This document shows, one piece after another, positions 25,701-59,459 of a DNA stretch of 64,000 bases. The stretch's first letter is position 1; each line of letters begins with the position of its first letter. The notes under the pieces are model-generated. The model had not been told where the DNA came from. It did not search any database and saw only the letters and a list, made by a program, of their open reading frames with translations. Source of the DNA: Spirochaetia bacterium (GTDB lineage Bacteria > Spirochaetota > Spirochaetia > SZUA-6 > Bin103); contig OZ241863.1 of the NCBI GenBank assembly GCA_965203055.1, positions 4,064,001 through 4,128,000 of the forward strand, read 5' to 3'. Position numbers and translations under genes: made by a program.

Positions 25701-27671
25701 CTAATCCGCTGTCTGCGCCCGAATCTGCACCAGAAGCCGCTTGCCCTCCAGCGTTTGGCGCGCCCAATACAGGTTCTGGTACTGATCGTAGCCGCCCTCG
25801 CCCTCGCTCCCTGCCAGCCTTGCCGTGGCGGTCGCGGTGGTGCCGCCGCCCGGCGCCGCACCAAAGGTCACGGTTGGGGTAGTGGTGTAACCGCTCCCGC
25901 GGTCCGTGACCGTCACCGACGCTACGCGTAGCGCCGCGGTGCCGGCGGCCGTGGTACCGGCCCCCGGCGCTGCTCCAAAGGTGACGGTTGGGGCAGTGGT
26001 GTAACCGCTCCCACGGTCCGTGACCGTCACCGACGCTACGCGCAACGCCGCGGTGCCGGCGGCCGTGGTGCCGGCCCCCGGCGCTGCCGAAAGGGTCACG
26101 GTTGGGGCAGTGGTGTAGCCGCTCCCACGGTCCGTGACAATCACCGACGTTACGCAACGCCGCGGTGCCGGCGGCCGTGGTGCCGGCCCCCGGCGCTGCC
26201 GAAAAGGTCACGGTTGGGGCAGACGTGTAGCCGCTCCCACGGTTGGTGAACGTCACCGACGTTACGCCGGTTTGTATCGTTGTGCTCCCGGTGGCCGTGC
26301 CGCCGGTCGGCGGCGCGCTGAACGTCACGGTTGGGGCAGTGGTGTAGCCGGCCCCCGCGTTCGTGAGCGTCACTCCCTCTACTCTGGTGGTCCGCAACGT
26401 CGCGGTGGCGGTCGCGCCGGAGCCCCCTCCTCCCGAAAACGACACGGTTGGGGCAGTGGTGTAGCCGCTTCCCCGGTTCGTTATGCCCAGGGAAGTCACA
26501 GTATTTCCGCTTATCCCCGCCGTTGCGGTCGCCCGGGTGCCACCGGCCGGCGGCGCGCTGAACGTCACACTTGGAGCAGACGAGTAGAAGCTCCCCCCGG
26601 CCGTGAGAGTCAACGTCCCTACTTCTGATCGCAGCGTTGCGGTGCCGGTCGCCGTGGTGCCGCCGGTCGGCGCTGCTGCGAACGTCACGGTTGGAGCGGA
26701 CGTGTAGCCGCCCCCCCGGTTCGCCATCACCACTGCCGTGACGCGGCCGGGCCCCACCGCGGTGCCGGTCGCCGTGGTGCCGCCGGTCGGCGGCGCGCTG
26801 AACGTCACGGTGGGAACGGACGTATAGCCGCTTCCTCCGGTCCCGACCGTCACGGCATCGACGGCGCCCGCCGCGGTGCCGGTCGCCGTGGTCCCGCCGG
26901 TCGGCGGCGCGCTGAACGTCACGGTCGGAGCCGACGCATAGCCGCTTCCTGCGGTCCCGACCGTCACGGCATCGACGGCGCCCGCCGCGGTGCCGGTTGC
27001 CGTGGTCCCGCCGGTCGGCGCCGCGCTGAACGTCACGCTGGGAACCGACGCGTAGCCGCTTCCTGCGGTCCCGACCGTCACGGCGTCGACGGAGGCCACC
27101 GCGGTGCCGGTGGCTGTAGTGCCGCCGGACGGCGCCGCCTGGAACGTCACGCTGGGAACGGACGCATAGCCGCTCCCCGGGTTCCCTATCGTGACCGCCT
27201 CGACCGTGCCGACGGCGTCCGGCGCAACTGTGTCGGAGCCCGACTGATCCGGGGCGGTGAGCACCAGTACCACTGCGCCTGCCTGGACCTCATAGTCAAC
27301 CGTCCACTCCGCGCCGGTGAGGTCGGACGCGAAGACCGGCTTGGCGCTCGTGGTCGTGAACGGCGCCGGGTGCCCGCCGATCGACACCTCCACCTTCTCG
27401 CCCTCGCCGCCGGTGATCCGTTCCCAGGCATACGGCGCGGAACGGTTGGACGTTGCGCTCAGCAGGTCCGCGCCGTCACCAAAGTGAGCCGCGCTGATCG
27501 TCCAGCTCTTCTCGGCCGGCTGGGCCGGCTGCGGGGTTGGTGTCGGCTCGCTTGGCCCCCCCCTTGCGCCGGGTTGGCGGGCGCGGCGGGCGGGCGCGCC
27601 GCCTGCGTGCAAGCCATCAGCGCGCCGATACCGGCGGCCATCAACAGCGATAACAGCGACACTCTACCCAA
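25701..27671 (-). pseudogene. Repeat-rich surface lipoprotein (12 x ~38-aa GSGY repeats), interrupted by two frameshifts; possibly phase-variable
   Basis: GGAGGG RBS, TTG start at 27671 and an ALMAC lipobox. It is one base short at the G8 tract (27556-27563) and two bases short at ~26150. The repaired product is ~657 aa and aligns at both ends with 58243..59340. Confidence 0.8.
25810..27215 (-). repeat. Tandem ~114-bp coding repeats in two homogenised blocks
   Basis: 114-bp period seen directly (GTGTAACCGCTCCC at 25885 and 25999; GCCGCTTCCT at 26827 and 26941). Confidence 0.9.
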
Positions 27672-27821: not shown

Positions 27822-27895
27822 GCCCCAGTAGCTCAGTCGGATAGAGCATCGGTTTCCTAAACCGCAGGTCGGACGTTCGAGTCGTCTCTGGGGCA
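27822..27895 (+). tRNA. tRNA-Arg(CCT)
   Basis: GCCCCAG/CTGGGGC acceptor stem, anticodon loop TTCCTAA, GTTCGAG T-loop; CCA not encoded. Confidence 0.95.
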
Positions 27896-57549: not shown

Positions 57550-57552
57550 TTG

Positions 57553-57640
57553 CGGAGAGAGTGGGATTCGAACCCACGGTACCCGGTATGAGCACACACG
57601 CTTTCCAAGCGTGCACCTTCGGCCGCTCGGTCATCTCTCC
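57553..57640 (-). tRNA. tRNA-Ser(GGA)
   Basis: GGAGAGA stem, anticodon loop TTGGAAA, long variable arm, GTTCGAATC. Confidence 0.95.
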
Positions 57641-57694
57641 CGAGCACACAGAGGGTAGCACGCCTGCGGTTTTGCCGCGCTGCCACCCTGAAGG

Positions 57695-57784
57695 CGGAGA
57701 GAGTGGGATTCGAACCCACGGAGCCAGCATACGCGGCTCAACGGATTTCGAGTCCGCCCGATTCGACCGCTCTCGCATCTCTCC
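57695..57784 (-). tRNA. tRNA-Ser(CGA)
   Basis: Anticodon loop CTCGAAA, long variable arm. Confidence 0.95.
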
Positions 57785-57849
57785 GCGCGCCGGCGCACCG
57801 GCGCGGGCCGCTTACGCGCCCGCTCCGGCAAACGACGCTTGTGTGTCTG

Positions 57850-57924
57850 CGTGCCCAAGAGGACTCGAACCTCTGACCTCTAGATCCGCAATCTAACGCT
57901 CTATCCGGACTGAGCTATGGGCAC
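57850..57924 (-). tRNA. tRNA-Arg(GCG)
   Basis: GTGCCCA/TGGGCAC stem, anticodon loop TTGCGGA. Confidence 0.95.
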
Positions 57925-57954
57925 GAATCGGCGCGGCGCCGCCCGCCGCGCCTT

Positions 57955-58041
<87 letters not shown>

Positions 58042-58081
58042 CGGCCATGCGCGCCGCAGCCGCGGCGGCGTGCTCTCGACG

Positions 58082-58166
58082 CGGAGAGGGAGGGATTCGA
58101 ACCCCCGGAGCCGAACGACTCAACGGTTTTCAAGACCGCCTCCTTCGACCACTCGGACACCTCTCC
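58082..58166 (-). tRNA. tRNA-Ser(TGA)
   Basis: Anticodon loop CTTGAAA, long variable arm. Confidence 0.95.
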
Positions 58167-58242: not shown

Positions 58243-59340
58243 TCATTCATCGGCGGCCGGCGGATCGGCGGCGGCCGCCTCACCCGCCAGCCGAACCTGA
58301 AGCTGCTTGTCGTACAGGGTCTGGCGCGCCCAATACAGGTTTTCGGTCCGGGAGTTGCCGAGCTGCGGTTCGAGCACCGCCTCGCCGACCGCGCCGCTGC
58401 CGCTGCCGCCCGTGAACGACACGGTGGGGGGAGACTCGTAGCCGCTCCCCCGATTCGTGATCGTCACTGACCTGACGCCGGTTTCCAGCGCCGAGGAAGT
58501 GATCGCCTGGGCGTGGCCGGCGCCGCTCGGCGGCGTCGAAATGGTAACCTGCAGAGCAGAGGTGTAGCCGGTCCCCGGTTCCGTGATCTCCACGTGACTG
58601 ATCCGGTCGCCGCTGCTGTCCTTGTGCACTACTCCGGCTGCCCGGGTGCCGCCGGCGGTCTGCGGTGGCTGAAACGTAGCGGTCGGGGTCTCGGTTTCGT
58701 AGCCCGCTCCCGCGGAGGTGATGGTCACAACCCTGTATCCGCCCGGCCCCACCGCGGTGCCGGTCGCCGTGGTGCCGCCGGAGCCGGCCGGCGGCGGCGA
58801 AAACGTGACCGTCGGAATGGAGTTGTGCGCCCAGCCGCTCCCCAGGCTGGTCATCGTGACGGAAGCGACGCCCCTCGGGATGAGCTGATCCTCGGCCGTG
58901 ATCACCAGCACCACCGCTCCGGCGCGGACTTCCGCTTTCAACTCCCACTCCGCGCCGCTGAGGTCGGATTCGAAGACCGGCTGATGGGCCGTGTTGGTGA
59001 GCGGCAGAGCGTGTCCGCCAATCGAAACGCGCACCTGGTCCAGGTTGTCGGCCGTGATCCCGTCCCACGCGAACGGTTCGGAACGGTTGGTCGTTTCGAG
59101 CCAGATGGTCACGCCGTCGTCGCCAAAGTGAGCCGCGCTCAGCGTCCAGCTCTTCCTGGTCTCCCGGGGCTGCGGCGTTGGCGCCGGCGCGCTCGGCTCC
59201 TCTCCCCCGGAGGAGGGAGCGGACGGCGCCGGCGTCGTTGCGGGCGGCCGCGTGAGCGGCTCGCACGCCAGCATGGTGACGCCGGCGGCCGCCGCCAGCG
59301 CCAGAACCTTCAACTCCTTCAACAACAACCTGCTACCCAT
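58243..59340 (-). CDS. Surface lipoprotein with 4 GSGY-type repeats, paralog of 25701..27671
   Basis: MLAC lipobox, Pro-rich tether, shared KSWT.SAAHFGD…AGAVVLV.TA.DQ domain and shared C-terminal NLYWARQTL. Confidence 0.9.
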   Translation of the reverse strand: MGSRLLLKELKVLALAAAAGVTMLACEPLTRPPATTPAPSAPSSGGEEPSAPAPTPQPRETRKSWTLSAAHFGDDGVTIWLETTNRSEPFAWDGITADNLDQVRVSIGGHALPLTNTAHQPVFESDLSGAEWELKAEVRAGAVVLVITAEDQLIPRGVASVTMTSLGSGWAHNSIPTVTFSPPPAGSGGTTATGTAVGPGGYRVVTITSAGAGYETETPTATFQPPQTAGGTRAAGVVHKDSSGDRISHVEITEPGTGYTSALQVTISTPPSGAGHAQAITSSALETGVRSVTITNRGSGYESPPTVSFTGGSGSGAVGEAVLEPQLGNSRTENLYWARQTLYDKQLQVRLAGEAAAADPPAADE

Positions 59341-59446
59341 GACCATTCCCCTCCCGGCATGTACTATTATTCGCGCTCGATCCGCTCGATCCGCACTAGG
59401 TCTTGCAACAGCGGAGCAACTGCAGTACCAAAAGGTATCACGCTAT

Positions 59447-59459
59447 GGGGGGGGGGGGG
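59447..59459. repeat. Poly-G tract (G13) in a divergent intergenic region
   Basis: CGCTAT-G13-AGCC read directly. Confidence 0.9.

Follow-up and report, generated by a model that had tools for sequence, protein, structure and literature searches.

Lipoproteins with variable repeats and genes switched by homopolymer tracts are both established kinds of system. In the Vlp lipoproteins of mycoplasmas, the switch is a homopolymer tract in the promoter. According to the account in PMC6080569, Vlp of M. hyorhinis and Vsa of M. pulmonis combine variation in length with on/off variation, and the longer forms shield the cell. In Treponema pallidum, tract length is described as setting the expression of surface-protein genes, and a poly-G tract just upstream of the tpr transcription start varies in vivo and sets promoter activity (PMC7864442). 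A structural comparison is offered by Si3 of cyanobacterial RNA polymerase, an array of sandwich-barrel hybrid motif (SBHM) repeats, which is reported to form a 150-angstrom projection in which the chain folds over itself, with several modules made from distant parts of the chain (PMC10895346). Here, we consider a lipoprotein gene with 12 repeats, located on the minus strand at 25701..27671 of a 64,000-nucleotide (nt) stretch of contig OZ241863.1 from an uncultured Spirochaetia bacterium; the whole stretch is referred to below as the window. The gene is a disrupted member of a large lipoprotein family that has no name. On balance, we favor the view that the proteins of this family form an out-and-back stalk and make up a phase- and size-variable surface coat or adhesin.

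Like Vlp and Vsa, as these are described in the cited account, the lipoproteins considered here are encoded by many genes, keep their N-terminal part conserved and vary in their number of tandem repeats. There is, however, no sequence relation. The Vlp and Vsa repeats are short, of low complexity and C-terminal, whereas those considered here are β units of 39 amino acids (aa) that sit inside a folded domain and obey an even-number rule. The host is an uncultured diderm spirochaete rather than a mycoplasma. The likeness to tpr and other outer-membrane protein genes of T. pallidum, as far as these are covered by the source above, lies in the spirochaete host and in tracts placed upstream of or inside the reading frame, but the proteins are unrelated and the tracts found here are much longer, up to C30 and G22.

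Si3, as described, resembles the family in being an array of β modules spliced into a loop of a host domain, and it provides a solved precedent for an out-and-back repeat insert; to our knowledge, it is the only one. When our 12-repeat model (mf2e25fff6c18) was compared with the PDB in Foldseek, the weak best matches included an insert in the β′ subunit of Thermus RNA polymerase (E-value 0.3 or more) and cyanobacterial Si3 (8emb_D; E-value 2.6, template modeling (TM) score 0.09–0.10). With E-values of 0.3–2.6 and TM scores of 0.05–0.10 overall, these matches are no evidence of a relation, either to Si3 or to the SBHM fold. The Si3 modules are also larger, fixed in number and cytoplasmic, and show neither length polymorphism nor an even-number rule. 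The same ~39-aa repeat does occur in phage proteins, often as four inserted copies: PHROG 460 (Hc2), 205 (sheath), 5342 (tail fiber) and 701 (virion structural protein). Only the repeat is common, however; the host domains differ, and the phage proteins lack a lipobox. No description of the fold or role of these phage inserts was found in the searches made. Three things are new here: the family, an even-number rule obeyed by a widespread repeat that has neither an annotation nor a solved fold, and the combination with switches in an uncultured spirochaete lineage.

The 12-repeat gene and its family

The features of the 12-repeat gene and of its intact paralog in the window are as follows:

27618..27671, minus strand: signal peptide and lipobox (L-M-A-C), read from a GTG at 27671 in a frame that differs from the rest
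27556..27563, minus strand: G8 run just after the lipobox, first frame break; relatives have G12–G22 in the same place
27505..27555, minus strand: Gly/Pro-rich tether
27226..27504, minus strand: N-terminal part of the base (anchor) domain, ~93 aa from E-K-S-W-T, by profile match
26764..27225, minus strand: repeats R1–R4, similar "outbound" block with the GPG linker at its end
26284..26763, minus strand: repeats R5–R8, divergent center; R6 bears GGTRA
~26520 (within 26284..26763), minus strand: R6/R7 junction, predicted hairpin tip
25833..26283, minus strand: repeats R9–R12, similar "inbound" block, starting after the QTG linker
26150..26153, minus strand: site of a 2-bp deletion at the R9/R10 junction, second frame break, by comparison with the R10/R11 and R11/R12 junctions
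25701..25775, minus strand: stop codon and the conserved C-terminal segment (N-L-Y-W-A-R-Q-T-L ...), which is predicted to supply the base domain with its last helix and strand
58243..59346, minus strand: paralog with 4 repeats, intact and 367 aa long (P0001 when read from the second Met)
59447..59459, minus strand: C13 tract, 100 nt upstream of the paralog ATG

The repeats are sandwiched between a ~95-aa domain and the conserved C-terminal segment. A motif-anchored parse gave 12 units of 36–42 aa, typically ~39 aa, in a pattern of four alike, four divergent and four alike. Mutual identities are 70–87% at the protein and 77–92% at the DNA level for R1–R4, 66–87% and 75–87% for R9–R12, and 43–60% for R5–R8. 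Tandem Repeats Finder reported two separate 114-bp arrays. Inside each of the similar blocks, identity declines with distance, which fits duplication by single 114-bp units. A GPG follows R4, GGTRA lies within R6, and QTG precedes R9. In the paralog, the lipobox (a hydrophobic stretch, then T-M-L-A-C) is followed by a Pro-rich tether, the domain found in the 12-repeat gene, four repeats marked by GPG, GGTRA and ETG, and the same C-terminal segment. The initial annotation of the window, made from the letters alone, had described the 4+4+4 array, the parts shared by the two genes and the positions of the landmarks in both, and all of this was borne out.

As assembled, the 12-repeat gene has two frame interruptions. 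The lipobox frame diverges from the main frame at the G8 run, where one added G would fuse the two. The 2-bp deletion then shifts the frame again, so that R10–R12 and the C-terminal segment lie in a third frame (open reading frame 25701..26144). The length of 657 aa previously given for a "repaired" protein presupposes that both breaks are mended; the 12-repeat architecture stands, and that one word was all that covered the two interruptions. For local counting, an X was placed at the second break so that the gene could be read through. In this assembly, the window copy is off.

A search with the paralog returned 56 protein clusters, ~48 of which have the whole architecture and none of which is named. 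Scans of both window genes against Pfam, NCBIfam and PADLOC gave no family; the best Pfam match, PF25456, scored 15.8 bits against a cut-off of 31.5, and there was nothing else for either gene. The initial annotation had likewise named no family with this architecture, and a search of the open-access full-text literature found no description of the repeat or of such lipoproteins. Genomic loci were located with three peptide patterns from the domain in one genome per species, a scan that misses relatives without those patterns. It yielded 55 loci, all in four metagenome-assembled genome (MAG) records of high-GC Spirochaetia bacteria (16, 17, 16 and 6 loci), some of which hold two or three genes in tandem. 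Each genome of this clade of uncultured high-GC Spirochaetia thus has 6–17 family loci, and the source contig itself has at least three members: the 12-repeat gene, P0019 and the paralog. Across related genomes, 59 distinct genes show this architecture, so the pattern is not due to chance. Its parts are a lipobox, a Gly/Pro-rich tether, the ~95-aa base domain, and ~39-aa β repeats spliced in before the last helix and strand of that domain. A simple pattern, rather than a dedicated predictor, found an in-frame lipobox-like sequence in 42 of 53 family genes; the 12-repeat gene has its L-M-A-C in another frame.

The domain most similar to that of the 12-repeat gene (89%) belongs to L034:3923-5515 (OZ241907.1), whose lipobox frame and main frame part at a G12 run. 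The last repeat of L034 resembles a fusion of R9 and R12, corresponding to a three-unit deletion. Taken together, the two copies indicate that the same kind of gene has been damaged differently in two genomes. In three other family genes, at L023, L046 and L051 (OZ251573.1), the domain is separated from the C-terminal segment by gaps of ~500 aa or more, and two of these genes, L046 and L051, change reading frame along their length. The gaps may be inserted elements or fused genes, and the repeat counts given below do not include these three.

Repeat numbers, mirror organization and cysteine pairs

The position of the array relative to the domain is indicated by members with few or no repeats. 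In P0045, the domain is joined directly to the C-terminal segment with no repeats; L047+, L052 and P0202 have one repeat, and P0079 and P0201 have two. A search for further short proteins in which the domain stands alone turned up mainly frameshifted fragments, and none besides P0045 lacked repeats altogether. For the paralog, AlphaFold predicts the C-terminal helix (residues 331–342) and strand (346–351) with predicted local distance difference test (pLDDT) values of 91–96. These short forms and the model support the earlier proposal of a split anchor domain: the array interrupts a single domain, shortly ahead of the last helix and strand of that domain. Since the forms with zero, one or two repeats keep both domain parts, and the C-terminal helix and strand are predicted with pLDDT >90, the ends of the array must lie together. 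With the ends together and only short, rigid linkers available, some out-and-back path follows.

The number of repeats was counted in 59 genes, which are the distinct complete ones from the loci and from the window. Not included were three genes that have insertions of >100 aa and two that gave no match to the C-terminal segment; missed units were filled in where the spacing equaled two units. The counts are n = 1 (2 genes), 4 (23), 6 (10), 8 (12), 9 (1), 10 (3), 12 (6) and 14 (2). The number is thus even in 56 of the 59 genes, with a binomial p of 6e-14 if relatedness is ignored. Among complete metagenome proteins, 35 of 38 are even. Single-unit slippage alone would give odd and even counts equally, so this distribution points to selection for pairs of equivalent repeats. 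An excess of even numbers is also seen in unrelated giant proteins, where 66 of 87 arrays with n ≥ 8 are even. No period-2 signal was found in these 87 arrays: identity by lag was 0.41, 0.40, 0.41 and 0.40, and mean unit length was 39.43 at odd and 39.42 at even positions.

The similar blocks tend to occupy mirrored positions: R1–4 and R9–12 in the 12-repeat gene, R2–5 and R8–11 in L018, and R2–4 and R7–10 in L029. L029 has undergone one recent duplication on each arm, R3 and R4 being 100% and R8 and R9 98% identical. Judged by eye, the difference between L011 and the 12-repeat type amounts to one unit per arm. When the 12-repeat gene was mapped unit by unit onto its 6- and 4-repeat paralogs, four of six units could be placed clearly and the others were ambiguous. 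Units 1–4 of the 6-repeat gene scored best on R4–R7, and units 5 and 6 were ambiguous. From these alignments, the 12-repeat gene resembles a 6-repeat core to which three units have been added at either side.

The initial annotation had held that the two arms expanded by equal numbers, and had proposed counting outbound and inbound repeats in homologs. Such counts gave a divided answer. The GT[RQK]A landmark unit lies at n/2 in 12 of the 22 genes with an interior landmark, at n = 4, 6, 8, 10 and 12, against a chance expectation of 3.6 (these genes are related), but it is off-center in the other 10. Arms are unequal in L025 (4+6), L040 (6+8) and L038b/L043 (5+3), as well as in L034 (6+3). In L025, the outbound arm is short of two units, and in L040, the central unit is present in two additional copies. 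The arms therefore tend to grow equally, but this is not a rule; the firm rule is the parity of the total.

A separate line of evidence comes from the cysteines, which are rare in the family apart from the lipobox. Where two repeats each have one Cys, they always form a mirror pair with i + j = n + 1, and this is the case in five subfamilies:

(1,4) of 4: L006+, whose mature form is otherwise free of Cys; in both repeats, an unusual P-R-V precedes the B strand
(2,3) of 4: L016, L051 and P0022
(3,4) of 6: P0023, and P0024 by eye
(4,5) of 8: ten members of one subfamily
(6,7) of 12: L006- and L036

Counting one case per subfamily, the probability of this pattern is 3e-4 for random pairs, and 9e-4 for all four adjacent pairs falling at the central junction. 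Genes that have both Cys within a single repeat, or whose R2 and R3 contain three or four Cys, are uninformative in this respect. In one 6-repeat subfamily (L031:4106 type, P0008–P0013, P0019 and P0030), the second repeat has C-C before the middle strand, and the array contains no other Cys.

Path of the repeat array

Two AlphaFold models were available. That of the paralog, built on 30 sequences, has a pLDDT of 83.7 and a predicted TM score (pTM) of 0.60. For the 12-repeat form, we folded an intact relative, L037:5735-7705 (L037b), a 657-aa protein with the same layout and a domain 77% identical to that of the 12-repeat gene; its mean pLDDT is 75.6. In L037b, every modeled junction except R6/R7 is predicted as one unbroken strand of 17–21 residues, which comprises the final strand of a repeat, the linker and the opening strand of the repeat that follows. 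At R6/R7, a strand at 384–390 is followed by two residues, GG, and then by another strand at 393–401, a break that would have the look of a hairpin tip. The repeats are disordered only at residues 260–300 (R4) and 461–496 (R9), which are mirror partners. Alignment coverage for R4 and R9 is 0.12–0.37; it is similarly thin for R6–R7, mostly 0.13–0.25, yet pLDDT is ~90 there. The long junction strands need long partners, and the short middle strand of a repeat covers four residues only, so the opposite arm would be their natural partner in this model. From the indirect support of the Cys pairs, the parity and the secondary structure of the model, we infer that repeat i would pair with repeat n+1-i in the family arrays.

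In the arrangement that we favor, the base domain would sit on a lipid-anchored tether, and the array would leave the base and return to it as two antiparallel arms. Repeat i would pack on repeat n+1-i, one rung per mirror pair, with a hairpin turn at the center, and the number of rungs would set how far the tip projects. Judging from the 17–21-residue strands of the model, one rung may add very roughly 2–3 nm. Gain or loss of 114-bp units would change the length of the stalk, and adding one unit per arm, or two at the tip as in L040, would alter the length with the base kept closed. Slippage in the poly-C before the start codon or in the poly-G after the lipobox would switch single genes on and off. 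By analogy with the Vlp and Vsa shields of mycoplasmas, a population might then carry a coat of varying make-up and thickness.

Several observations weigh against this arrangement. Odd counts exist, namely n = 1, 1 and 9 in the loci and, in the metagenome, five repeats in P0017 and P0034, seven in P0020, and three in P0041, which was not caught by the pattern. The 9-repeat gene is L034, the one with the closest domain, and its blocks are 4+4+1. The unequal arms and the 10 off-center landmarks described above count on the same side. The Cys pairs are mostly neighbors in sequence, the non-adjacent pair occurring in one gene only. Rare residues are shared in mirror register at 0.048, compared to 0.11–0.19 in shifted registers, which makes the mirror register the lowest value of all. 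In giant proteins, there is no general divergent center (64 arrays, p = 0.61); one is visible in a few (P0062, P0065, P0070, P0083 and P0087), and the mean unit length at the array center is 40.4 compared to 38.9–39.9, with equal medians. The L037b model has a pTM of 0.41. Lastly, structure prediction of the paralog, as suggested in the initial annotation, gave a confident C-terminal helix and strand but also strand breaks of 4–6 residues at all three junctions. These breaks fit either a kinked hairpin of two rungs or two fingers.

The main rival to the nested hairpin is a row of such fingers, in which neighboring repeats (1 with 2, 3 with 4, and so on) fold into serial two-repeat beads, with no nested pairing and no lengthening of a stalk. 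As both ends of each bead would be close to one another, a loop could accommodate any even number of repeats. We consider this unlikely, though it has the most in its favor among the alternatives. Besides the strand breaks in the paralog, turn-prone residues (GPG, SG, NG and TG) are found at nearly every junction. The linkers in P0014 alternate (ISSS, AYYY, ISG.., AYYY, ISSS), and the close paralogs L025 and L040 differ by two repeats on one arm. The clearest case is P0122, an 819-aa metagenome cluster protein whose cyclophilin-type prolyl isomerase domain is interrupted by three repeat pairs, set apart by ~20-aa linkers, and by one further pair in a second loop. Here, pairs stand alone and in series, and a two-repeat unit can evidently be inserted into loops of unrelated enzymes. 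Against beads of this kind, no period-2 signal was seen in identity by lag or in unit length. The unit of duplication is the single 114-bp repeat, and a 6-repeat core with three units added on each side would shift the phase of the beads in the 12-repeat gene. The Cys pairs (4,5) of 8, (6,7) of 12 and (2,3) of 4 straddle the borders between beads, and (1,4) of 4 links the first repeat to the last. The L037b junction strands, continuous except at the center, also speak for the hairpin over the beads.

The repeat outside the family, homopolymer tracts and the neighborhood

A full scan of 1.8 billion cluster representatives found the repeat in 2521 of them at E ≤ 0.001. The best 150 of these 2521 matches are mostly proteins of 1000–4500 aa with 6–21 matched stretches. 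Cellular enzymes with the repeat include a GH64 glucanase (P0110) and a multicopper oxidase. Among 38 repeat-bearing giant or phage proteins, 29 have no Pfam match, and the other nine match other domains and not the repeat, for which there is no Pfam model and no matching solved structure. A sequence and profile search of the PDB with P0001 gave no hit (best profile E-value 0.07), Foldseek searches of the PDB with both models gave none at E ≤ 0.001 (TM ≤ 0.15), and a search of the ESM Atlas gave no usable match.

The initial annotation had pointed to a likeness to phage virion and tail-sheath insertions and had suggested a domesticated phage module. The likeness is real. The paralog matches 13 PHROG families and the 12-repeat gene 14, including head closure Hc2, tail fiber, baseplate wedge and virion structural protein; four-repeat inserts are present in phage sheath (P0052 and P0055) and neck (P0051) proteins, and 36 predicted viral structures in BFVD match at E ≤ 0.001. 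On this basis, the family could be a virion decoration repeat that was kept by the host and is now displayed, for example as a decoy or adhesin. We regard such an origin as improbable. All PHROG matches are confined to the repeat region (paralog residues 156–325) and none extends to the non-repeat core of a PHROG profile; the base domain has no phage relative. The 2521 representatives include giant proteins and the cyclophilin, GH64 and multicopper oxidase enzymes, and the window neighbors are housekeeping genes and tRNA genes. The direction of transfer is not readable from these data, and resemblance to phage sequences leaves a phage origin of the repeat unproven. The weakest alternative, that the array has no structural meaning and that two independent tandem expansions near the ends of a flexible region both happened to reach four copies, can draw on the ease with which tandem arrays expand, on the 4 and 1 copies in L034 and on the broken state of the 12-repeat gene, but it is already disfavored and hardly credible, since free single-unit slippage cannot give even counts in 56 of 59 genes, the center is divergent while the flanks are uniform, the Cys pairs fall on mirror partners, and the paralog model is of high confidence.

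The hairpin arrangement may also apply beyond the family. The host domains that carry repeat inserts are as diverse as the lipoprotein base, phage sheath, neck protein, cyclophilin and glucanase. We tentatively propose, with less assurance than for the family itself, that the ~39-aa GSGY / P-x-V-T-F unit, with a fold still to be solved, serves generally as an "extensible hairpin" block: arrays would always run out and back, even numbers would fit a loop of any host domain, and single-unit slippage on both arms would tune a rigid projection, which in combination with the homopolymer switches found here would make a coat of adjustable thickness. If this is correct, a widespread β repeat (2521 cluster representatives, at least 13 phage protein families) gains a structural logic, and the even-number rule becomes usable for annotation. 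The out-and-back insert, solved so far in Si3, would then be a recurrent, evolvable way to adjustable projections, with a bearing on phage decoration proteins and on protein design.

The homopolymer tracts are widespread in the family. Of the 53 genes with both domain parts, 34 have a tract of C or G, 8 nt or longer, at the 5′ end. The tract is an upstream C9–C30 in 26 genes and lies within the reading frame in 9; one gene belongs to both groups. Many of the upstream tracts end 11–30 nt before the start codon. In the subfamily of the 12-repeat gene, the run is G12–G22 and lies right after the lipobox, which is out of frame in six of seven such genes (including L033 and the 12-repeat gene) and in frame in L029. 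Tract length differs between related genes: L020 and L021, which are only 93.6% identical, have C20 and C30, respectively. Both window genes have such a tract, G8 in the 12-repeat gene and C13 upstream of the paralog, the latter within an intergenic region common to a divergent ABC permease gene. The sequences thus suggest family-wide phase variation via homopolymer tracts, with the reservation that tract lengths in MAG consensus sequences may be miscalled. If so, an uncultured high-GC spirochaete lineage devotes 6–17 loci per genome to switchable, size-variable lipoproteins, a strategy known mainly from host-associated mycoplasmas and treponemes. This would raise the question of what drives it in these spirochaetes: phage, grazers or hosts.

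The neighboring genes in the window are housekeeping genes, including those for class I lysyl-tRNA synthetase, an RlpA-like protein, NAD synthetase and the ABC permease, as well as tRNA genes. Both family genes adjoin the latter: a tRNA-Arg(CCT) gene (27822..27895, plus strand) lies directly upstream of the 12-repeat gene, and five tRNA genes (Ser, Ser, Arg, Ser, Ser; 57552..58166, minus strand) lie directly downstream of the paralog.

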